A stretch of 64,000 nucleotides of DNA from the sequence record PZ452591.1. The stretch is one strand, 5' to 3'. The position numbers were made by a program, and so were the translations under genes. This document shows, one piece after another, positions 1 through 61,636 of the stretch (positions within the stretch are counted from its first letter, which is position 1; each line of letters opens with the position of its first letter). Below the pieces are notes generated by a model. That model was given only the letters and a program-made list of their open reading frames with translations. It had not been told where the DNA came from and did no database searches. This DNA is from a phage.

Positions 1-32
1 AATATATTAAAGCATATTAAAGAGGATTAAAA

Positions 33-2012
33 ATGACTTTATTATCTCCGGGCATTGAGCTCAAAGAAACTACGGTTCAAAGCACCGTGGTTAATAACTC
101 TACTGGTACAGCAGCTTTGGCCGGTAAATTCCAGTGGGGTCCTGCTTTTCAGATTAAACAGGTTACAAACGAAGTAGATTTAGTTAATACTTTTGGTCAA
201 CCAACCGCTGAAACTGCTGACTATTTTATGTCTGCGATGAATTTCTTGCAGTACGGAAATGACTTACGAGTAGTTCGTGCTGTTGATAGAGATACCGCTA
301 AAAACTCATCTCCGATTGCTGGTAATATTGAATACACAATTTCTACCCCAGGTAGTAACTATGCGGTTGGAGATAAAATCACGGTCAAATATGTTTCAGA
401 TGCTATTGAAACTGAAGGTAAAATTACTGAAGTAGACGCAGATGGAAAAATTAAGAAAATTAATATTCCTACTGCAAAAATTATCGCTAAAGCTAAAGAA
501 GTCGGTGAATATCCGGAATTAGGTTCTAACTGGACTGCGGAAATTTCTTCGTCTTCCTCTGGTTTAGCTGCAGTAATAACTCTTGGAAAAATTATTACTG
601 ATTCTGGTATTTTATTAGCTGAAATTGAAAATGCTGAAGCTGCTATGACAGCGGTTGACTTTCAAGCAAATCTTAAAAAATACGGAATTCCAGGAGTAGT
701 AGCGCTTTATCCAGGCGAATTAGGCGATAAAATTGAAATTGAAATCGTATCTAAAGCTGACTATGCAAAAGGAGCTTCTGCATTACTCCCAATTTATCCG
801 GGCGGTGGTACTCGCGCATCTACTGCTAAAGCAGTGTTTGGATATGGACCACAAACTGATTCACAATACGCTATTATAGTTCGTCGTAATGATGCTATTG
901 TTCAAAGCGTTGTTCTTTCAACTAAGCGTGGTGAAAAAGATATTTACGATAGTAACATCTATATCGATGACTTTTTCGCAAAAGGTGGTTCAGAATATAT
1001 TTTTGCAACTGCACAAAACTGGCCAGAAGGCTTCTCTGGAATTTTAACTCTGTCTGGTGGATTATCATCAAATGCTGAAGTAACAGCAGGAGATTTGATG
1101 GAAGCTTGGGACTTCTTTGCTGACCGTGAATCCGTTGATGTTCAACTGTTTATTGCGGGTTCTTGTGCCGGTGAATCTTTAGAAACAGCATCTACTGTCC
1201 AAAAACATGTTGTTTCAATCGGGGATGCTCGCCAAGATTGCTTAGTATTGTGCTCTCCTCCGCGTGAAACTGTAGTTGGAATTCCTGTAACTCGTGCTGT
1301 TGATAACTTAGTCAATTGGAGAACTGCAGCAGGTTCATACACTGATAATAACTTTAATATCAGTTCAACCTACGCAGCAATTGATGGTAACTACAAGTAT
1401 CAGTATGACAAATATAATGATGTGAATCGTTGGGTTCCATTAGCAGCTGATATTGCTGGTTTATGCGCAAGAACTGATAACGTATCTCAGACTTGGATGT
1501 CACCAGCTGGTTATAATCGTGGCCAAATTTTGAACGTTATTAAACTGGCTATTGAAACTCGCCAGGCTCAGCGCGACCGTTTATACCAAGAAGCTATCAA
1601 CCCGGTAACCGGTACAGGTGGTGATGGTTACGTATTGTATGGTGATAAAACAGCTACTTCTGTTCCTTCTCCATTTGATCGTATTAACGTTCGTCGTCTG
1701 TTTAATATGTTGAAAACGAATATCGGACGTAGTTCAAAATATCGTTTGTTCGAATTAAACAACGCGTTTACTCGTTCATCATTCCGCACAGAAACTGCCC
1801 AGTACTTGCAGGGAATTAAAGCTCTCGGTGGAATTTATGAATATCGTGTAGTTTGCGATACAACAAATAACACTCCGTCAGTAATTGATAGAAATGAGTT
1901 TGTTGCAACATTCTACATCCAACCGGCCAGAAGCATTAACTACATTACCTTAAACTTCGTAGCAACTGCTACTGGTGCAGATTTCGATGAGTTAACTGGT
2001 CTTGCAGGTTAA
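33..2012 (+). CDS. 18: Tail sheath protein gp18 (659 aa)
   Basis: Full-length ORF; N-terminus MTLLSPGIELKETT and length match remembered T4 gp18; position upstream of tail tube gene. Confidence 0.95.
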   Translation: MTLLSPGIELKETTVQSTVVNNSTGTAALAGKFQWGPAFQIKQVTNEVDLVNTFGQPTAETADYFMSAMNFLQYGNDLRVVRAVDRDTAKNSSPIAGNIEYTISTPGSNYAVGDKITVKYVSDAIETEGKITEVDADGKIKKINIPTAKIIAKAKEVGEYPELGSNWTAEISSSSSGLAAVITLGKIITDSGILLAEIENAEAAMTAVDFQANLKKYGIPGVVALYPGELGDKIEIEIVSKADYAKGASALLPIYPGGGTRASTAKAVFGYGPQTDSQYAIIVRRNDAIVQSVVLSTKRGEKDIYDSNIYIDDFFAKGGSEYIFATAQNWPEGFSGILTLSGGLSSNAEVTAGDLMEAWDFFADRESVDVQLFIAGSCAGESLETASTVQKHVVSIGDARQDCLVLCSPPRETVVGIPVTRAVDNLVNWRTAAGSYTDNNFNISSTYAAIDGNYKYQYDKYNDVNRWVPLAADIAGLCARTDNVSQTWMSPAGYNRGQILNVIKLAIETRQAQRDRLYQEAINPVTGTGGDGYVLYGDKTATSVPSPFDRINVRRLFNMLKTNIGRSSKYRLFELNNAFTRSSFRTETAQYLQGIKALGGIYEYRVVCDTTNNTPSVIDRNEFVATFYIQPARSINYITLNFVATATGADFDELTGLAG

Positions 2013-10984: not shown

Positions 10985-12403
10985 TTATGGATAGGTATAG
11001 ATGATACCAGTTTCTAAAGCAGTTTTATGAATGATGTATCCATTACGTGATTCTTGGACATCAACTTCTGGATAATCTTTCATCATCTTCTGAAGAGTGT
11101 AACGATGCAGGTAGTATTTACTATCTGGATCTTCAGTTTTCCAATCTTTACCTTCTTCAGTCATTTTTTGGATTTCATCCATGACCCACCAACCGCACCA
11201 GATGTAAGCTGAGCTACGGTGTGGAAGAGGATGAACATAAGGTAATTCACCTTCTGGTTCTGGAGCAACTTTATCAGTTACCTGAACTTGACCTTCTGCT
11301 GTAATAGTTTTGCTATCATAATCAGTAGCAGTAACAGTTGCAGTAACTTCAATAGTTTGACTTCCAATAGATGAGGTATCAACGGTGTATACATTAGTTG
11401 ACCCTTCTACAGGAGAAGAATCTTTCTTCCATGAATACGCAATTTGTGCTTCTTCTGGAGCATCAGTAACATTAGCAGTAAATGTAGCCGAAGCATCTTG
11501 CTGGACGTTAATAGAAGGAGGAGTCAATGTAACCTGTGGATTCATTGTCTTCTTATTAACCGTTAATGATACTTCATTCGAAGTAACTTCCTTTGCATCA
11601 TAATCTGCCGCAGTTACTTGGGCTACGCATTTAATTCTTTTTACTCCACTTGTAGTTGGAGTATAGCTAAATGTAGAGTTAGTTTCTCCACCAACTTGTG
11701 AATCATCTACATACCACTGATACGTAGCAGACGCTCCAACTGGTTGAGAAGCTAAGGCAGCAGTAAATTGAACTGGGGTTCCAATTACTCCAGCTGAAGG
11801 ACTATCGGGAGTTACTGCCAAAGTAGTTGTCTGTGTCTTTTTATTAACAGTCAGTGACACTTCATTAGAAGTAACGCTTAGTGCATCATAATCTGTTGCG
11901 GTTACTTGAGCCACACACTTAATTGTTTTAACTCCGCTTGTGGTAGGAGTGTAATTGAATGTAGCAGAAGTTGCTTCGACCACAGGAGAACCGTCAACGT
12001 GCCATTGATACGTAGCAGATGCGCCAGGTGGCTGCGAATCTAAGGCAGCGGTAAATTCAACAGCTGTTCCGATTACTCCTTCCGGAGGACTATTAGGAGT
12101 TACAGCTAAGGTAGTCGTTTGTGTCTTATTTTGAACTGTGATAGTTGTAGTAGCTTCTGCTGTTTCAGCATCAGTATCTGGAACTGTATTTGTTGCAACT
12201 ACTTTAATAGTCTTTTGACCGGCAGGTCCTTTTAATACATAATCAAAAGTTGCTTCAGCTCCATCTTGTGGAGCATCATCTACAGTCCAAGCATATGTAA
12301 TAGTTCCGCCTCCAGTTTCACCACTGGGTGTAGCAGTAAACTGCTGAGTTTGATCTATAACTCCAGTAGGTGTTTTAGGAGTTATATCAACTGTAAAAGC
12401 CAT
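10985..12403 (-). CDS. hoc: Head outer capsid protein Hoc, 472 aa, with an extra Ig-like domain
   Basis: N-terminus MAFTVDITPKTPTGVIDQT and C-terminal capsid-binding region PLPHRSSAYIWCGWW match T4 Hoc; contains two adjacent near-identical about 96-aa Ig-like repeats. Confidence 0.9.
   Translation of the reverse strand: MAFTVDITPKTPTGVIDQTQQFTATPSGETGGGTITYAWTVDDAPQDGAEATFDYVLKGPAGQKTIKVVATNTVPDTDAETAEATTTITVQNKTQTTTLAVTPNSPPEGVIGTAVEFTAALDSQPPGASATYQWHVDGSPVVEATSATFNYTPTTSGVKTIKCVAQVTATDYDALSVTSNEVSLTVNKKTQTTTLAVTPDSPSAGVIGTPVQFTAALASQPVGASATYQWYVDDSQVGGETNSTFSYTPTTSGVKRIKCVAQVTAADYDAKEVTSNEVSLTVNKKTMNPQVTLTPPSINVQQDASATFTANVTDAPEEAQIAYSWKKDSSPVEGSTNVYTVDTSSIGSQTIEVTATVTATDYDSKTITAEGQVQVTDKVAPEPEGELPYVHPLPHRSSAYIWCGWWVMDEIQKMTEEGKDWKTEDPDSKYYLHRYTLQKMMKDYPEVDVQESRNGYIIHKTALETGIIYTYP
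11553..12128 (-). repeat. Tandem direct duplication (2 x 288 bp) inside hoc encoding two Ig-like domains
   Basis: DNA motif ttattaac recurs at 11553 and 11841 (offset 288 bp) with long stretches of identity; protein repeats KTQTTTLAVTP...SNEVSLTVNKKT about 80 percent identical. Confidence 0.8.
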
Positions 12404-23508: not shown

Positions 23509-23561
23509 CCTCATGTTATGTCAGTAAGAATACTATAACACAACACGAGGGACTTGTAAAC
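23509..23561 (-). repeat. 53-bp direct repeat copy 1 (partner at 39034..39086)
   Basis: cctcatgttatgtcagtaagaatactataacacaacacgagggacttgtaaac versus copy 2 with about 3 mismatches. Confidence 0.8.
23525..23561 (-). promoter_or_regulatory. T4 early-promoter-like element (GTTTAC - 17 bp - TTATAGT) with leader and GAGGAA SD
   Basis: Minus strand GTTTACAAGTCCCTCGTGTTGTGTTATAGTAT...ACATGAGGAACACAAAATG. Confidence 0.6.
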
Positions 23562-25618
23562 TACATTTTGAACTTTTTAGACATTCCGTTGATGTTAACC
23601 AAAGAAGCCAAGATTTGAGAAACTTCGTTTTCCTCTTCTTTTGATTCTTCTACAAGGAATTGATTAAATCCAGCCATTGGACGAACTTCACCAGTTTCCA
23701 TTAGATGGTCTCCATCATATACTGATTCTTCTAATTGTTCAGAAGGAGGAACGATTGTACCTTCAATTAGATACTTGTTATAAGCAGTTTCTTTCATAAA
23801 GTACGTACTTACTTTATTAATCTTCAGTAAAATTCCACGCGGTAGAATAACTTCAGCTTCTGATGGAAATCCTGATAAATGACCTGGAACGATAACTTTG
23901 ATTCGCTCAGCTCCTTTAATTACCATACCCACGCTAGTTTCAGCATCTTCATTAGCATATGTAGAATGACTACCCATATGCATCAAATCTTCTGCATCAA
24001 CGGAATCTTCTCCTTCACCAGAAAATACTGCGCCGGAATCATCTAGAGCCATATAGTTTTTACCATGCTCACCGAAGATATTTGGTTTAAGCGATGTGGA
24101 TACGAAGTTCTTGAAATAAAACATTTTATTTTCAATGTTATGACGCAAAGTTTTAAAGGTAACTTCTTGTCCACGGTAAAGCGTAGTTCCTGGAGGAAGA
24201 ACTGAACCTTTAGCGAATGCAGAATCCAACGTCTCGATGTGCTTAATAGCACGTTCCATATATTCTTCACGGGTAGAATCTGGTTTACCCAAAAGGAACG
24301 AGTTCATTTCAACATATGAATCAGCACAATAATCTTCAATTACGTCAGATTCAGCCTGAGTTAATCCTTTTGGAGTTACTTCGGTGCTTGCGTATTCATA
24401 CGCCTGGGCGGCAGATTCATTAATCAATTTATAAATGCCATTCATGACGAATTGAATAATAGCTGTCTTTTCATCTGGCGTGGCTTTAGAACCTTTAACT
24501 AAATCATTAATAATTTTCTTAATAACATCAAAGCTATTAGAAATATTAATGTCAGCAAGATCGCTTAAAATTTTATCAGTTTTATAATCAAAGAATTCTT
24601 TATTCTTTAAATATTCTTGAGAACCTTGATATGTTATATCGCTCTGCAGCTTGATAGATGGATCACGTAAACGCGCATGGGCCAATGCGATATGATTTCG
24701 GAAGTTTTCTAGTTCATAATCGCTAGATTTAAAACGAGAAGCACTCCTCATACCACCAATAGCTCCTTTGCTGAAGTTTGAACCAATCTGGATAACGCCA
24801 GAGTTCATTGGTCCTTCTGCTTTATATACCGGAACTTTAGATTCAAACTCTTGATATTTCTTGGCAGCGAAGCTATCACCCTGAAGTGAAGCATCGACAG
24901 TAGAATATTGAGCTTGTGCTGCTAATCGACGACTAATTTTAGTTTTCTGAATAACAGCTTGATCCGTGCGCTTATCATTTTCTAAAGCAATAGAAGCAGC
25001 AACAGCAACAGCTTTAGGAACAGCATTACCTGTTTTAACGTCTACATAAACATCACCGACCTTTGATTCAACTTTTGTGAATAACTCAGTTGAAATAGGA
25101 GGTACACCTGGAATGTCTTCTAAATTGGCATTTTTACGGTAAACCATAATATATGCATACTTTTTATCATAATCCCAGATTTCCTTTAAAAGAACATATC
25201 GACCTGCTCCTTTAGTACGTACTAAACGGTCAGCAATAACTTGCATTTGACGAGCTGCGCCATTTGTTTTACTTTTTAGTACGCGGAATAAGCATGCGTC
25301 GATTTTATACTGCTTCATTGTTTGAAGAGCAGTATCAAAAACCGCATTAATGACGCCAATTGGATTTCCACCCAAGTTTCTAAGCTTAACCAGCGATAAT
25401 TTCTCGTTGACGCCTATCATTACGATATGCATCATTTTATCGCCTGGCTTAACGTTTTTATTTGTATCACCGCCAGAGGTGTATGTACAAAATCTAAATC
25501 CAGGAAGCACACTTTCTTCGCCGGCTTGAATAGCAAAAATTTGTGGTATTTTATGCTTAGGATTTAAGTTAACAACCGGCGCCGAAGCGCCGTCAAATAA
25601 TTCTGTAATAAGTTCCAT
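23561..25618 (-). CDS. Alt-like ADP-ribosyltransferase paralog (685 aa)
   Basis: Same length as and N-terminal 220 aa highly similar to alt (MELITELFD...); C-terminal ART-like region with LYRG, FVSTS motifs; central region diverged. Confidence 0.85.
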   Translation of the reverse strand: MELITELFDGASAPVVNLNPKHKIPQIFAIQAGEESVLPGFRFCTYTSGGDTNKNVKPGDKMMHIVMIGVNEKLSLVKLRNLGGNPIGVINAVFDTALQTMKQYKIDACLFRVLKSKTNGAARQMQVIADRLVRTKGAGRYVLLKEIWDYDKKYAYIMVYRKNANLEDIPGVPPISTELFTKVESKVGDVYVDVKTGNAVPKAVAVAASIALENDKRTDQAVIQKTKISRRLAAQAQYSTVDASLQGDSFAAKKYQEFESKVPVYKAEGPMNSGVIQIGSNFSKGAIGGMRSASRFKSSDYELENFRNHIALAHARLRDPSIKLQSDITYQGSQEYLKNKEFFDYKTDKILSDLADINISNSFDVIKKIINDLVKGSKATPDEKTAIIQFVMNGIYKLINESAAQAYEYASTEVTPKGLTQAESDVIEDYCADSYVEMNSFLLGKPDSTREEYMERAIKHIETLDSAFAKGSVLPPGTTLYRGQEVTFKTLRHNIENKMFYFKNFVSTSLKPNIFGEHGKNYMALDDSGAVFSGEGEDSVDAEDLMHMGSHSTYANEDAETSVGMVIKGAERIKVIVPGHLSGFPSEAEVILPRGILLKINKVSTYFMKETAYNKYLIEGTIVPPSEQLEESVYDGDHLMETGEVRPMAGFNQFLVEESKEEENEVSQILASLVNINGMSKKFKM

Positions 25619-25621
25619 GAT

Positions 25622-27679
25622 TTATCCTTGAACGAACTTGTAAGGCATGTTTGTAATATCTATGCAAGACGCAATAATTCCAAGAGATGATTCTACTTTC
25701 TGTTTAACATTTGATGAAACAAATGATGCAAAGTCAACTCTGTCTTCTATTTCAATATCACCTGTCATTGCAACTACTTCGCCGGTTTCCATTAAATGGT
25801 CTCCGTCATAGATTACCGATTCGGTGAGCTCTTCTGTGGTCATAACTTCAGCTTGAATAAGCTTGTTGTTAGTTTTAACTGTTCCATCATTGTAAGATGC
25901 ATCGGTTATTTTATTAACTTTGACCATTAATCCACGTGGCAAAATGACTTCCATTTCATTTGAAGGTGCTAAACTTCCACCTGGTAAAACAACATTGACT
26001 TTATCAGCCCCAGTAATAACCCATCCAATTCCAACTAAATTATCGCTAGAATTTACTAGTCCTTCATCAGTTTTATCAATAGAAACACTTAAACGCTTTT
26101 CGTCTGGTAAAACACCCACAGATGAATCAGTCATCCAGGTACCAAAAATATTTGGATATAATGATGTTGACACAAAATTTCTAAAATAAAAAACTCGATT
26201 TTTTACCAGTGCTTCATATATTGAAGGTAACATTCGTTGTGAACGATACAAAGTAATACCTTTTGGTAATCGTTCACCATTTTTAAAGGCAGAATCTAAA
26301 TTATCAATAGCTTTTTCTATATCAGATGCTGTCAAAATACTTGTACGCTCATCTGGATTATATAATCCCAAAAGAGCGTTATTTATGTCTACATATCCTG
26401 AACCTACGTATTCACGAATTCCGCGTTTTTGTGCCGGTGTGTATTTAGATGAATCTTTATTTTCGACTATAGGATGTAGTGACCATCCAGCGGTAAGAGC
26501 ATATCCACGCAATTCTCTTCGAATAATCTTTGTTTTTATTGCATTCCAAGAATTTTGTACTAACTCATTCACAGCATCTTGATTTAAATGCGAATGCTTG
26601 TTAATGTTTCTTTCTAACCAAGCACCTTTATATTTTTCTAAAGTATCATCAACTATAGAAGCAATAGTTTCTAAAGTTTTTATTGAAGTAATAGATTCTT
26701 TTCGTAATCTTTCTAAAGCTTTATTTTTTATTTCTGCATTAACATCAGATTCTTTATCTTCAGGAATTATAGAAGCTTCTCTGAATGCCATTCCAGCTGT
26801 AACACTACTAAGAGCATTCTCTAATGCAAATCCTGAAGTAGAAATAACAGTTAATTCATTAGCATCAGAAATTAAAGGAGCGTCAGCAGGTTTATTTAAT
26901 TCTGCTGCTGAAGCCTCAAATTTTTGAAACATCGGCGTTTCAAATCTAGAAGATTCCAACGACTGACTTTGCGCAATTGCTCTACGGGAAATTTTAACTT
27001 TAACGATTACAGCTTGGTCAGAACGTTTATCGTTTTCTTGCGCAATAGATGCTGCAATTGCCTCGTTTTTAGTTACTTGAGCTCCAGTATCTTTATTGAT
27101 ATAAACATCACCGACCTTCGATTCAACCTTAGTAAAGAGCTCGGTACTAATTTCCGGAACTCCTGGAATGTCTTCTAGTGATACATTTTTGCGATGTATA
27201 AGAATATATGCATACTTTTTATCATAATCCCAGAGTTCCTTAAGAAGGACGTATCTTCCACCTGAACGACTACGGATAAGTCTATCAGCAATAACTTGAA
27301 TTTGTCGAGCTTGGCCAGCAGTTTTAGACTTAAGAATACGAAGCATACAAGCATCAATTTTATACTGACGCATTGTTTGCATTGCGACAGTAAAAACTGA
27401 ATTGATATAATTAATCGGGCTTGGACCAAGACCTTTTAATTTAGCAATTGAACCTTTAGCAGTTAATGTAAAAGGAACAATGTGCATCATTTTATCGCCC
27501 ATTTTTAAATCGCGATTAGTATCACCTCCAGATGTATAGGTACATAAACGAAAGCCTGGTTGTTCAATTGCATCATCAACGTGAACTGAAAAAATTTGTG
27601 GTATTTTCTTCTTTGGATTTAAGTTTGTAATCGGAAGAGTAGTATCTTCGTCAAATAATTCTGTAATGAGTTCCATCAT
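25622..27679 (-). CDS. alt: Alt, virion-packaged ADP-ribosyltransferase (685 aa)
   Basis: Close match to remembered T4 Alt throughout (MELITELFDEDTTLPITNL ... NMPYKFVQG); two adjacent ATGs at the start. Confidence 0.93.
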   Translation of the reverse strand: MMELITELFDEDTTLPITNLNPKKKIPQIFSVHVDDAIEQPGFRLCTYTSGGDTNRDLKMGDKMMHIVPFTLTAKGSIAKLKGLGPSPINYINSVFTVAMQTMRQYKIDACMLRILKSKTAGQARQIQVIADRLIRSRSGGRYVLLKELWDYDKKYAYILIHRKNVSLEDIPGVPEISTELFTKVESKVGDVYINKDTGAQVTKNEAIAASIAQENDKRSDQAVIVKVKISRRAIAQSQSLESSRFETPMFQKFEASAAELNKPADAPLISDANELTVISTSGFALENALSSVTAGMAFREASIIPEDKESDVNAEIKNKALERLRKESITSIKTLETIASIVDDTLEKYKGAWLERNINKHSHLNQDAVNELVQNSWNAIKTKIIRRELRGYALTAGWSLHPIVENKDSSKYTPAQKRGIREYVGSGYVDINNALLGLYNPDERTSILTASDIEKAIDNLDSAFKNGERLPKGITLYRSQRMLPSIYEALVKNRVFYFRNFVSTSLYPNIFGTWMTDSSVGVLPDEKRLSVSIDKTDEGLVNSSDNLVGIGWVITGADKVNVVLPGGSLAPSNEMEVILPRGLMVKVNKITDASYNDGTVKTNNKLIQAEVMTTEELTESVIYDGDHLMETGEVVAMTGDIEIEDRVDFASFVSSNVKQKVESSLGIIASCIDITNMPYKFVQG

Positions 27680-35264: not shown

Positions 35265-35500
35265 AGTACGCCATACACCCTTTGTGCTTCAACTAATCCA
35301 TCAAAATCCAGTTTAAGATGCGATATTTGATCGCCATCACCTGGATTCACAATTACTAATACTGAACGAGGAGTTTCGGTAATAACACGAACCGATGTTT
35401 CAGGAAATCGTTCAGAAACCTTATTTACTAATTCCTGTGCAAATAGTTTAACTTTTTCTTGGAATTCTTTAACAGTAATTGGTTTTTCACTTAGCAGCAT
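35261..35500 (-). CDS. Hypothetical protein, 79 aa
   Basis: ORF. Confidence 0.6.
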   Translation of the reverse strand: MLLSEKPITVKEFQEKVKLFAQELVNKVSERFPETSVRVITETPRSVLVIVNPGDGDQISHLKLDFDGLVEAQRVYGVL

Positions 35501-36021
35501 GTTGATCCCAGCTCCTTACTTTCAACGTTTTTAACTAATTTGACAGAAACTAATTCAGCATCTTGAGTAATCATTACCGGACCTTCTTCATACTCTTCAA
35601 GATATTCTAGAGCTTTCTTTTTAGCTTCTTCCTTCGTATCAGTTTGAGCATAGATATAAAACATACAACCAGTAATACCTACTACTTTCCACTTAATTTC
35701 TTTATCAGTTTTAATTTCAAATTTACTGACAGAATCATCTTTTTGAACTTCTTCGAAAAAAGAATATTCTAACATATAAGCAATTGAAAATAACGGGCTA
35801 TCTTTATAGCATTCACCCATTACATCAACAGCTTTATACCAGCAGTCATCAATTTCGCGTTTAATGCTAATAACATTTTTCGCAAGATCTATTTTTACTT
35901 TAAATGAATTTTCCCCAATAAACTGGGCAATTCGTTTATTAGCCCCGCAAGTTTCATTAAAAATATCTTTATACCCAGTTTTAAAGCGATAAACCTTATC
36001 TTCTTCAAACCATTCGCTCAT
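35491..36021 (-). CDS. Hypothetical protein, 176 aa
   Basis: ORF with early-promoter-like element upstream. Confidence 0.7.
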   Translation of the reverse strand: MSEWFEEDKVYRFKTGYKDIFNETCGANKRIAQFIGENSFKVKIDLAKNVISIKREIDDCWYKAVDVMGECYKDSPLFSIAYMLEYSFFEEVQKDDSVSKFEIKTDKEIKWKVVGITGCMFYIYAQTDTKEEAKKKALEYLEEYEEGPVMITQDAELVSVKLVKNVESKELGSTCC

Positions 36022-45662: not shown

Positions 45663-46010
45663 TCAATACGGTTTAGCATCAAATTTTCTCTCAATTTCAG
45701 GCGTGAAATATAATTCTTTACCGCGTTTGGAAAAGCGACCAATAATATGATAATTATTCTCATCAAACGTAATATTACCAATATCCATAGCTTTCAACCA
45801 AATATCGATATTTCTATCCAGCTTTATGTCAAAATTCCAATACGGAGAACTATTACCGAAAATACTGCAAGCGGATTCAGTGAAACAGCTACTATAAATC
45901 TTGTCTTTAGGAACTACTAATTGATAGACACCTTTAATAAACTGAGGACCCTGCCACTTTGGCTGTTTCGCGTCTTCTTCTAATAGAATAGGGTAATAAT
46001 TAAAATTCAT
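45663..46010 (-). CDS. Hypothetical protein, about 115 aa, lying between frd and td
   Basis: ORF-track start GTG; first ATG at 46010; not expected at the T4 frd-td junction. Confidence 0.55.
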   Translation of the reverse strand: MNFNYYPILLEEDAKQPKWQGPQFIKGVYQLVVPKDKIYSSCFTESACSIFGNSSPYWNFDIKLDRNIDIWLKAMDIGNITFDENNYHIIGRFSKRGKELYFTPEIERKFDAKPY

Positions 46011-46030
46011 ATTTTCCGTCACGCGTTATT

Positions 46031-46859
<829 letters not shown>

Positions 46860-48253: not shown

Positions 48254-49159
48254 TTAAAGGTCATTCAAAAGGTCATCCAGGTCCGTGTCATCAGCACTAG
48301 ATGAACTGCCAGAGCTTGAGCTCATAAAATCATCTTCAGTTTTTGTTTTGAAGTCATCAACATTGAATGCATCCAAATCATCAGCAACTTTATCAGCTTT
48401 CTTAGCAGCAGTTGCAGCGGCACCGCCCATCACAGCAGTTCCCATAACTTGACCGAATTTAGTATTCAGTTCTTCAAACGATTTGAATTTATCTTTAGAA
48501 GTCATTTCAGAAAGGTCAACCATTTGTTCGAACAGTTCTTTCTGGAAAGATTCATCATCAATGTTTGGAATCGCAGATTGATTCAGGAATTTAGATTCGT
48601 CGTAGTTACTAAATCCAGAAACCTGTTTAACTTTCAGTACAAAGTTAGCACCTTCCCACGGGCAAGTTACATCAACCGGAGTTTCACCCATTTCGACATC
48701 AACCGCAATCATTGCATTGATTTTATCCCAGATTTTCTTACCGAAACGGTATTTAAATACTTTACCTTCGTTTTCTGGAGCAGCTGGGTCTTTTACAACA
48801 AGAATATTAGCCCAGTAAGAAGTTTTACGTTTAACAAGACTGTACTCTTTATTGTCAGTGTTGTACAGATCATTTTTACTGATGTATTGACATACTGGGC
48901 AAGAATCGTAATCACCATGGGTAGATGAACATGTTTCAATATACCATTTACCATTTTTCTTGAAACCGTGATTTACAAGAATTGCGAATGGTGCTTGTTC
49001 ATCATTTTTAGACGGAAGAAAACGAATTACTGCTTGACCGTTACCCGCATTATCGAGTTTCAGTTTCCACTCGCCTTTATCTTCAGAAGAAAAACCTTTA
49101 TTGCCATTCAGTTTAGCCATTTGTGCAGCAAGTTCAGCAGTAGATTTACGTTTAAACAT
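48254..49159 (-). CDS. 32: Single-stranded DNA-binding protein gp32 (301 aa)
   Basis: Matches T4 gp32 including zinc-binding Cys/His region and acidic C-terminus. Confidence 0.97.
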
Positions 49160-49225
49160 TTTATTTCCTTTTTAATTTAATTAACAGTTGGTGCTATGAC
49201 ACTTTACCTCATAGCTGGCATAATT
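49160..49225 (-). promoter_or_regulatory. Gene 32 autoregulatory translational operator (pseudoknot plus UUAAA-repeat leader)
   Basis: mRNA-sense leader ...GCCAGCTATGAGGTAAAGTGTCATAGCACCAACTGTTAATTAAATTAAAAAGGAAATAAAATG matches the remembered T4 gene 32 operator. Confidence 0.8.
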
Positions 49226-49841
49226 CGCAATACTCTGGGTCTTCGAGAGGTATCCAACCTGAGTTGAAATACTTTACCATCGATTTAGCAGTTGTATCAG
49301 TTATATTTATATTACCTTTAACTCTTCGCCATCCAGGAGTTTTACCGTACAGATTAGAGGATAATAATAACTCATAATTCTCGTAAGCAATATGAGATAA
49401 TTTCCAAGACTCTATATTAGCTCGTGATGTTTTCCAAGGTCTAAAATCGTCACGGTTCATATAATTAGCCAATCTCATATGCTCTCTAACTTCCGGGTCT
49501 TTGGCTGGATGAGTTTCACCACTCACACCAAATCCACCACCAGCATATACCAGATTAAAATAGTCTGGATTATCTCTGGCATTTACTTCAAGTTGGTATT
49601 TTCGTTCTGCTTCAATAACATCCAAGTCATCATCAATTTGAATTATTTTAACGCTCGGTTTTTGAAGCATTAGCGCATTCAAAAATCTTTTTTGTTTACA
49701 TGAGCTCCAGTATTCCTTTCCGGAAGAGTCATATATTATTCCGTTCTCAAATGAGCAATTTAATTTACTACCGATATAGTAGTATGGCGGAGTCTTATTT
49801 TTGACACGGTCTTCAAATGTAAACCAATATACTATATTCAT
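49209..49841 (-). CDS. segG: GIY-YIG homing endonuclease, SegG-like (210 aa)
   Basis: N-terminal GIY-YIG-like motifs IVYWF ... YYYIGSK; located between genes 32 and 59 where T4 carries segG. Confidence 0.75.
   Translation of the reverse strand: MNIVYWFTFEDRVKNKTPPYYYIGSKLNCSFENGIIYDSSGKEYWSSCKQKRFLNALMLQKPSVKIIQIDDDLDVIEAERKYQLEVNARDNPDYFNLVYAGGGFGVSGETHPAKDPEVREHMRLANYMNRDDFRPWKTSRANIESWKLSHIAYENYELLLSSNLYGKTPGWRRVKGNINITDTTAKSMVKYFNSGWIPLEDPEYCELCQL
49304..49311 (-). promoter_or_regulatory. Late-promoter-like TATAAATA upstream of gene 32 (inside segG)
   Basis: Exact motif on minus strand about 145 bp upstream of gene 32. Confidence 0.5.
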
Positions 49842-49842
49842 A

Positions 49843-50496
49843 TCAATACTTGCAAGATTTCACAGTTTCAATGAAAACACTTTTAGCTTTCTGTGAATCA
49901 ATATTTAAAATTTTTCTATAAGCCTTTAACTTTATAGAATAATTATTCCAGACTAAATTATCAGTCTGTTCATCATGTTTATCAATTATATTTAAAAACG
50001 AATCAAGCAAGATAAACGTCTCAAACGAAATTATGTTCGATTGCAGAAGTTTAAAAATATAACTTGACTGAACCTTTGGATTATATTCAAAGATTTCTTT
50101 AAAAGCAGAAACTTCAACTTTCTTACTAAAATAATAAATGTTGCGAATATCTTCTTCAAACTTAAATTTAATTTGCTTTAAGCGTCCGATATATTCACGA
50201 TAAAACACAAGTGCATCAGCGTCAGAGATGTCACCAATCCAAGCATCTTGGTTAGCAACCAAATTACTTATAAAGATTAAAGCAAGTTCCTTTAATTTAT
50301 ATTTTTCTGATAACTTCTGGAAAAAATACTTATCCCTTCGCTTTTGATAAGCGGCATCAGACACCCGCATGCACCAATTATACTTAATTACATCATACTT
50401 TCCATTCATATGCTGTTTTATCATTAAGTATAATTTATAAACTGATTTACCATCAATGTATCTTTCACCACCAGCAGGCATGCGGAGTTTAATCAT
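49843..50496 (-). CDS. 59: Helicase loader gp59 (217 aa)
   Basis: 217 aa, matches T4 gp59. Confidence 0.9.
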   Translation of the reverse strand: MIKLRMPAGGERYIDGKSVYKLYLMIKQHMNGKYDVIKYNWCMRVSDAAYQKRRDKYFFQKLSEKYKLKELALIFISNLVANQDAWIGDISDADALVFYREYIGRLKQIKFKFEEDIRNIYYFSKKVEVSAFKEIFEYNPKVQSSYIFKLLQSNIISFETFILLDSFLNIIDKHDEQTDNLVWNNYSIKLKAYRKILNIDSQKAKSVFIETVKSCKY

Positions 50497-60844: not shown

Positions 60845-61636
60845 ATGGCAGTAGTTGGAGTTCCTGGCTGGATTGGAAGTTCAGCCGCAAATGAAACAGG
60901 ACAACGCTGGATGAGTCAAGCGGCTGGTCAATTAAGATTGGGTGTTCCTTGCTGGATGAGTCAATTTGCAGGTCGCTCACGAGAAATTATTCACACGCTT
61001 GGAGCAGACCATAACTTCAATGGTCAATGGTTCCGAGATAGATGTTTTGAGGCAGGTAGTGCACCTATAGTGTTTAATATTACAGGTGATTTAGTATCAT
61101 ATTCTAAAGATGTTCCTTTATTCTTCATGTACGGAGATACACCAAATGAATATGTTCAGTTAAATATACATGGCGTAACGATGTATGGTCGTGGAGGTAA
61201 TGGTGGTAGCAATAGTCCTGGCTCAGCTGGGGGTCATTGTATTCAAAATAATATTGGTGGGAGACTAAGAATTAATAATGGCGGAGCTATTGCTGGCGGC
61301 GGTGGCGGCGGTGGCGGCGGCTACTGGAATGCCGGTATAACGAGATATAGATCTGTTGTTGGTGGCGGTGGCGGACGTCCATTTGGGGCGGCTGGCGGGT
61401 ATTCTGGAGGATCAGCTTCTACCGCGGGCACTTTGACTGGGGCGGGCATTGGTTCTAAACCGGGAAATGCGATTTATGGTGGAAACGGAGGAAATGTGGG
61501 ATCTGCTGGTGGAGCTTGTGGCGGAATCTCAGGCTCTCGTTATGCTCGTTATGGTGGCGGCGCTGCTGGTTATGCTGTCATAGGGTCCGCTCCAACATGG
61601 CAAAATGTTGGAGCAATATATGGTCCAAGAGTATAA
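60845..61636 (+). CDS. 38: Tail fiber adhesin gp38, T2/T6-type with glycine-rich motifs (263 aa)
   Basis: Conserved N-terminus [28 protein letters not shown] and multiple poly-Gly motifs separated by variable segments; unlike the 183-aa T4 gp38 chaperone. Confidence 0.88.
61315..61342 (+). repeat. (GGC GGC GGT)n glycine-codon microsatellite inside gene 38
   Basis: ggcggcggtggcggcggtggcggcggc encoding a poly-Gly motif; a shorter second run about 40 bp downstream. Confidence 0.8.

Follow-up and report, generated by a model that had tools for sequence, protein, structure and literature searches.

A T4-type segG gene between genes 59 and 32 of a Tequatrovirus, and the tract linked to it in gene 32 of natural isolates

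SegG of phage T4 (gene 32.1) was reportedly characterised by Liu, Belle, Shub, Belfort and Edgell in 2003 (J Mol Biol 334:13). In later sources, all of which cite that study, segG appears as an active free-standing GIY-YIG endonuclease gene inserted between genes 32 and 59, with gene 32 as its target (PMC2988022, Table 1; PMC2330249; PMC535899). Cutting of a seg-less gene 32 is known for T4 versus T2, and the same sources hold segG responsible for the exclusion of T2 gene 32 in T4 × T2 crosses (PMC2988022; PMC2330249; PMC535899). In the published mechanism, a double-strand break in the seg-less gene 32 is resected and then repaired with the seg+ genome as template; since insertion site and cut are far apart, the intervening DNA must be co-converted (PMC2988022). 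I-TevI, the archetype of GIY-YIG homing endonucleases, is encoded in an intron and cleaves no more than ~25 bp from where that intron is inserted, whereas the free-standing SegG acts at a distance of hundreds of bp (PMC2988022). The gene is transcribed in an upstream polycistronic message and also from a promoter situated in the 3′ portion of gene 59, and RNase E processing inside the segG transcript stabilises gene 32 mRNA (PMC2988022). Within segG lie the middle and late promoters of gene 32, an arrangement that counts against loss of the cassette (PMC2988022), and the 5′ part of the gene 32 pseudoknot overlaps the segG reading frame in T4 (PMC535899). The gene, its location and its behaviour are, therefore, already known.

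The DNA analysed here, referred to below as the window, is a stretch of 64 kb from a phage genome. In the list of its open reading frames, an ORF of 210 aa with an ATG start and a TGA stop occupies positions 49209-49841 of the minus strand, exactly as claimed in the first-pass annotation; the N-terminus of its product reads MNIVYWFTFEDRVKNKTPPYYYIGSK. Gene 59 (49843-50496, 217 aa) is directly upstream and gene 32 (48254-49159, 301 aa) is downstream, and comparison of this map with the T4 annotation gives the same position and orientation as T4 segG. In a BLASTP alignment, the window protein and T4 SegG (NP_049855, annotated in T4 as “site-specific DNA endonuclease; GIY-YIG family”) are identical at 209 of 210 residues without gaps (99.5%), and 632 of the 633 nt of the two genes agree. 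PHROG 7504, “homing endonuclease”, matches residues 1-210 of 210 with E 2e-132. Given this full-length match and the near-complete agreement with T4 SegG, the ORF is not a chance reading frame. The 2.35-kb segment spanning gene 59, the ORF and gene 32 has matches in 848 phage records, and those with full coverage are Tequatroviruses at 98.3-98.8% identity, T4 among them. The first-pass annotation had called the product SegG-like and had located it where T4 carries segG. The slot is indeed the same, and since the length is equal and the amino acid identity nearly complete, the ORF is, as judged from its sequence, an intact copy of T4 segG in a Tequatrovirus (a T4-like coliphage) and not just a SegG-like gene.

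On the minus strand, the junction between gene 59 and segG reads ...AAGTATTGA T ATGAAT.... The gene 59 stop codon (49845-49843) is followed by a single spacer base (49842) and the segG ATG (49841-49839), so that the start of the ORF one nucleotide past the gene 59 stop, as stated earlier, can be read directly as TGA-T-ATG (minus strand, 49839-49845). A Shine–Dalgarno (SD) motif had also been said to be missing, and a pattern scan agrees: GGAG, GAGG, AGGA and AAGG are absent within ~60 nt upstream of the segG ATG, the nearest being at 49926. A TGA-T-ATG junction without an SD suggests that segG is translationally coupled to gene 59; its translation would most plausibly depend on ribosomes terminating on that gene.

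The presence of segG is patchy. Some 141 records carry it among ~504 close relatives with the same 59/32 flanks, and in the seg-less phages vB_EcoM_G2133 and RB68 the two genes are separated by 99 bp. Alignment of the 59/32 junction with these two relatives, a comparison that the first-pass annotation had proposed, defines a segG cassette proper of 626 bp (minus strand, 49219-49844) that replaces a 38-bp spacer, AATTGCTTATTATAAATAGATTATAATTATCTTACTGA. The junctions are clean, and the locus shows the intergenic presence or absence of a free-standing homing gene. Homology between seg+ and seg-less genomes resumes at CCAGCTATGAGG; therefore, the last segG codons and the UGA stop lie in sequence that is shared with seg-less genomes. 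It is this common stretch that forms the 5′ arm of the pseudoknot stem in the gene 32 operator. In the minimum free energy (MFE) fold, the hairpin GCUAUGA/UCAUAGC, stem 1 of the translational-operator pseudoknot, spans 49193-49215 on the minus strand, with the segG stop UGA (49209-49211) within its 5′ arm. The z-score of the hairpin, -0.76, is not significant alone, and an Rfam scan of the region returned no family. Relative to T4, the A/U-rich part of the gene 32 operator (49160-49185) lacks one AAATT unit and one A and is thus 6 nt shorter; this short form is found in 11 of the 14 seg+ loci compared below, T4 having the minority form.

Two promoter-like signals were found within the cassette by pattern scan, both on the minus strand. 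The sequence TATAAATA (49304-49311), which fits the T4 late-promoter consensus exactly and is identical in T4, lies 145 nt before the gene 32 ATG and is a candidate late promoter of that gene. A MotA-box-like AATGCTTCA followed by a 12-nt spacer and TAAAAT (49645-49671) is a candidate middle promoter. These candidate signals would fit the gene 32 promoters described as embedded in segG. The T4-specific late and MotA motifs were used since a generic scan for sigma-70 promoters and terminators performed no better than chance (10 found versus 10.4 expected). The 38-bp spacer of seg-less genomes, part of the 59-32 intervals at 1259-1357 of both L002 and L003, has its own TATAAATA and a TATAAT hexamer preceded by TTGCTTA; presumably, these motifs are ancestral gene 32 promoters that the segG cassette displaced. 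With gene 32 promoter signals inside it and its stop codon in the operator pseudoknot, the cassette would be hard to delete cleanly. All told, the window locus shares with T4 the 210-aa length, the 59/32 position and orientation, the TGA-T-ATG junction, the embedded late-promoter sequence and the overlap with the gene 32 pseudoknot. It differs in a single residue, V157E, and in the shorter operator, a feature of most seg+ isolates.

Does the neighbourhood of segG in natural isolates carry a trace of co-conversion? Since a scan of IMG/VR for gp32 relatives gave only four close relatives, the population comparison was built from GenBank phage records. It sets 14 seg+ loci (T4, the window and a further 12) against 9 seg- loci, and 79 informative SNPs in gene 59, the intergenic region (IG) and gene 32 were examined by Fisher test. 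The SNPs associated with segG (p 1e-6 to 4e-3) are all confined to the interval from IG nt 5 to nt 243 of gene 32. Association is strongest at IG nt 5, 7 and 8 (p 1.2e-6), followed by IG nt 40, 42, 45 and 46 (p 3.4e-4); in gene 32, p is below 1e-3 at nt 30, 52, 53, 57, 227 and 228 and below 0.005 at nt 108 and 243. None of the 24 SNP sites in gene 59 is associated with segG, even within 40 nt of the junction, and neither is any of the 38 sites that lie from nt 261 of gene 32 onwards. Over nt 1-250 of gene 32, the window differs at 0-2 positions from 12 of the 13 other seg+ genomes and at 4-11 from the seg- ones, whereas over nt 251-906 the two groups are indistinguishable from each other in their distance from the window (10-24 versus 11-25 differences).

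The segG-linked tract thus consists of the 59-32 intergenic region and gene 32 nt 1-243 (minus strand, 48917-49208 in the window). It is one-sided and ends between nt 243 and 261 of gene 32, as a population footprint and not as the outcome of a cross. The co-conversion driven by segG, which the first-pass annotation had invoked, is accordingly visible in natural isolates as a linkage tract running from the insertion point to gene 32 nt 243. A tract confined to one side is expected if intronless homing starts at a break around gene 32 nt 250-290. The cut was reportedly placed ~330 bp from the segG insertion site by Liu et al. in 2003; if so, it would fall at roughly gene 32 nt 265-280, which is consistent with the boundary of the tract. 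Two phages depart from the pattern: HY01 (L090) has segG but a 5′ gene 32 of the seg- type (a 909-nt allele), and in G2133, which is without segG, the 5′ gene 32 is partly of the seg+ type. These exceptions indicate that recombination also uncouples the tract from segG.

We now turn to the protein. Its N-terminal catalytic domain, with a predicted divergent GIY-YIG fold, comprises about residues 1-102 (minus strand, 49536-49841) and is joined by a low-confidence linker (residues 103-115) to a C-terminal helical domain of about residues 116-210 (minus strand, 49212-49496), presumed to be the DNA-binding, target-recognition module. Simple searches are silent on the fold. The single SegG protein has no match by phmmer in Pfam, NCBIfam or the PDB sequences, even at E = 10, and a profile of 30 homologs has none in the PDB sequences; alignment of this narrow 30-member profile with T4 SegE and I-TevI by hhalign was either not significant or brought together irrelevant regions. 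An exhaustive profile search found that the N-terminal ~100 residues of SegG are shared by 455 clusters (E up to 1e-3), in which they are fused to many different C-termini. The SegG-type family therefore has at least 455 clusters at 50% identity, of which 129 representatives entered a broad profile. This 129-member profile aligns with residues 2-90 of T4 SegE at an hhalign E of 2.1e-5 with the motifs all in register; its match to I-TevI runs only through a NUMOD3-like segment that SegG itself lacks. NUMOD3 is present in 85 of the 129 representatives (best E 1.7e-17), while PF19835, SegE_GIY-YIG, is reached by only 8 of them, at E 3e-4 or weaker (limit 0.01). T4 SegD and SegE score 21.6 and 19.2 bits against PF01541, just below its cutoff of 22.6, and weak Pfam sensitivity is therefore a general property of Seg proteins. 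The GIY-YIG profile hit on which the first-pass annotation had staked its reading is thus not obtained with curated models, but the family profile does reach the GIY-YIG domain of SegE.

The key residues of the catalytic domain are IVY (3-5), YIG (22-24), K26, Y44, S47, E79 and N96. Near-invariant in the family are V4, Y5, P19, Y22, I23, G24, S25, K26, Y44, S47, E79 and N96, so the GIY-YIG-like motifs that had been picked out by eye, IVY and YIG, are borne out: Y5 is found in 126 of 126 representatives, Y22 in 128, I23 in 122 and G24 in all of 129. The Tyr of “GIY” and the Tyr-x-Gly of “YIG”, ~10-17 residues apart, are both present in the family. E79 and N96, each in 128 of 129 representatives, align with the Glu and Asn of SegE in hhalign, and their equation with I-TevI E75 and N90 is by motif order and secondary structure rather than by residue-level structural alignment. 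The catalytic Glu is therefore found, as had been anticipated, but its expected partner Arg is not: the family has no conserved Arg between residues 27 and 50, and none at the canonical position of I-TevI R27. In the SegG model, a β-hairpin (30-32, 35-37) stands where I-TevI has the R27-bearing helix α1. The conserved basic residues are K26 (127/129), an invariant Lys right after YIG, and R12 (106/114), in the enlarged GIY-YIG loop.

The AF2 model of SegG (pLDDT 88.5) has the α/β fold of GIY-YIG domains, a three-stranded sheet flanked by helices. Two independent fold searches ranked the I-TevI catalytic domain first, among 48,164 and 350,542 chains; the Foldseek E-value against the PDB is weak, 0.84; in BFVD, phage endonucleases annotated as GIY-YIG or Seg-like are among the matches, at E 1e-4 to 1e-5. 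The assignment survives, then, because I-TevI tops the fold searches, the family profile reaches SegE, and there is hardly any variation at the Tyr, YIG, Glu and Asn positions. A divergent GIY-YIG fold of the Seg sub-type is supported for SegG by the predicted structure and by transitive profile evidence, and not by a curated model.

Among described proteins, T4 SegE and SegD (PF19835) are close in plan. They share with SegG the order of motifs, (I/F)VY, YIG, Y-x-(G/S)-S, a helix, a strand, the Glu helix and (Y/F)(F/Y)N, they likewise have no Arg-bearing helix α1 of the I-TevI kind, and their genes are free-standing, intergenic and patchy in distribution. They pass PF19835, however, whereas SegG is below every Pfam threshold, and SegG has an extra β-hairpin (30-37), a longer GIY-YIG inter-strand loop with R12, and another C-terminal domain. 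The catalytic domain of I-TevI (1LN0/1MK0) is only 13-17% identical to SegG; SegG has no counterpart of its R27/H31 helix, and the NUMOD3, zinc-finger and HTH modules of I-TevI are absent from the SegG C-terminus. It is tempting, if rather speculative, to propose that SegG-type catalytic domains form a distinct GIY-YIG sub-class, invisible to PF01541, in which helix α1 with its Arg has given way to a β-hairpin and the positive charge comes from K26 or R12. If true, this sub-class would have rewired the active site of an otherwise textbook enzyme.

Could the protein be no GIY-YIG nuclease at all, but a DNA-binding or regulatory protein in which the IVY...YIG string is a coincidence? The uniformly negative searches of Pfam, NCBIfam and PDB sequences and the missing canonical Arg might be read in this way. 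Yet a coincidental string would hardly be accompanied by first rank for the I-TevI catalytic domain in two independent fold searches, by the hhalign match to SegE (E 2e-5), by eight relatives that match PF19835 and 85 with the nuclease-associated NUMOD3, or by near-invariant Glu and Asn positions. Moreover, endonuclease activity is published for the 99.5%-identical T4 protein (PMC2988022; PMC2330249). We consider this reading extremely improbable, and a GIY-YIG nuclease remains the preferred interpretation of the protein.

A different question is whether this particular copy is still active. Codon 157 (minus strand, 49371-49373) is GAG, Glu, in the window and GTG, Val, in T4, the sole difference from T4 SegG. 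Among 13 full-length segG alleles, E157 is private to the window, the other 12 all having V157; in the 12 homologs that share this C-terminal domain, the column is V, T, C, I or L, at a helix position. Because a private V157E sits at a normally hydrophobic helix position, activity of the window copy is not guaranteed, and there is a modest possibility, on this sequence evidence, that it is impaired. One may go further and suppose that the gene is inactive or decaying and is retained since the cassette supplies gene 32 promoters and part of the translational operator. A charged residue where all homologs with this domain are hydrophobic would suit such a history, and a review reasons that promoters lying inside the gene help to preserve it whether or not it works as a nuclease (PMC2988022). 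Decay is also seen in relatives: in L004 (IMGVR_UViG_3300045988_128797, 1818-2451), a 1-nt insertion in segG leaves a frameshifted 64-aa stub, and in UFV-AREG1 (L100, 871-1500) segG has a one-codon deletion. The window gene, however, is full length with every family-invariant residue intact, it is one nucleotide change away from an experimentally active T4 allele, and the AF2 model is confident around residue 157 (block pLDDT 95). Loss of function thus seems an unlikely account of the window copy, though a good deal less so than the denial of its GIY-YIG nature.

The explanation that we favour, and hold to be very probably correct, is that the window carries an intact T4 segG, encoding a divergent GIY-YIG domain joined to a helical domain, which is translated in coupling with gene 59 and which homes by cutting gene 32 with co-conversion of the flanking DNA. 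The N-terminal ~100 residues would be the nuclease and the C-terminal ~95, helical residues the presumed target-recognition part. SegG is probably produced in small amounts, by ribosomes that finish gene 59 at its stop codon and reinitiate one base further on. Upon co-infection with a relative that has only the 38-bp spacer between genes 59 and 32, SegG would cut the gene 32 of that relative. The cut gene would be resected and then repaired from the seg+ genome, and in this way the recipient would acquire segG along with the operator between the two genes and the initial ~250 nt of gene 32.

The window was also compared with T4 97.0-146.9 kb by collinear megablast blocks and tblastn, and in this respect it departs from T4, being otherwise without several of its homing elements. 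Five absences show in the megablast blocks, each with no tblastn trace: segD (window junction 8015/8073), segE (13130/13150), the nrdB intron with I-TevIII (41207/41210), nrdB.1 and the HNH gene mobE between nrdA and nrdB (41883/41939), and the td intron with I-TevI (45062/45069). The first-pass annotation, which had reported segD, segE and the td and nrdB intron endonucleases missing and had called the homing-endonuclease content selective, is correct on both counts for these 64 kb, the absences being clean. Within them, segG is the only T4-type homing endonuclease gene kept.

Some other differences from T4 were observed in the window. Three minus-strand ORFs have no T4 counterpart at their positions: 35491-36021 (176 aa) between cd.2 and cd.3, 45663-46022 (119 aa) between td and frd, and 46605-46859 (84 aa) between frd and frd.1. 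They were considered as further homing endonucleases and rejected, as they gave no nuclease signal and matched only PHROGs 3710, 1928 and 3183, of unknown function. A second full-length Alt-like ADP-ribosyltransferase paralog (23561-25618, minus strand, 685 aa; PF03496, E 5e-20) adjoins alt (25622-27679), where T4 retains no more than alt.-1 and alt.-2, short remains of an old duplication of alt. The product of hoc (10985-12403, minus strand) has 472 aa versus 376 aa (1131 nt) in T4, and the self-overlapping alignment with T4 at this gene suggests that this head decoration protein has gained an Ig/PKD-like repeat over T4. Finally, gp38 (60845-61636, plus strand, 263 aa) has an end-to-end match in phrog_2056, “tail fiber protein; host specificity”. 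We take a gp38 of this size to be the long T2/T6-type adhesin and not the short gp38 chaperone of T4, in which case the phage would be a mosaic with non-T4 receptor recognition.

What does this locus mean for the T4-like phages? As a discovery, it has little weight, since the characterisation of segG dates from 2003 and well over a hundred phage genomes have the gene annotated. The sharp linkage tract of natural isolates, which runs to one side only, from segG as far as about gene 32 nt 250, is in independent agreement with the published distant-site co-conversion, and it narrows where the SegG target site should lie. That segG is kept while at least five other T4 mobile elements are missing from the 64 kb illustrates the independent gain and loss of such elements. 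SegG goes wholly unseen by the standard domain libraries, so that screens relying on Pfam count too few homing endonucleases of this class. Two points are mildly non-textbook: SegG-type domains escape the curated GIY-YIG models and do without the canonical Arg helix, and the tract in a natural population delimits the co-converted segment rather sharply.
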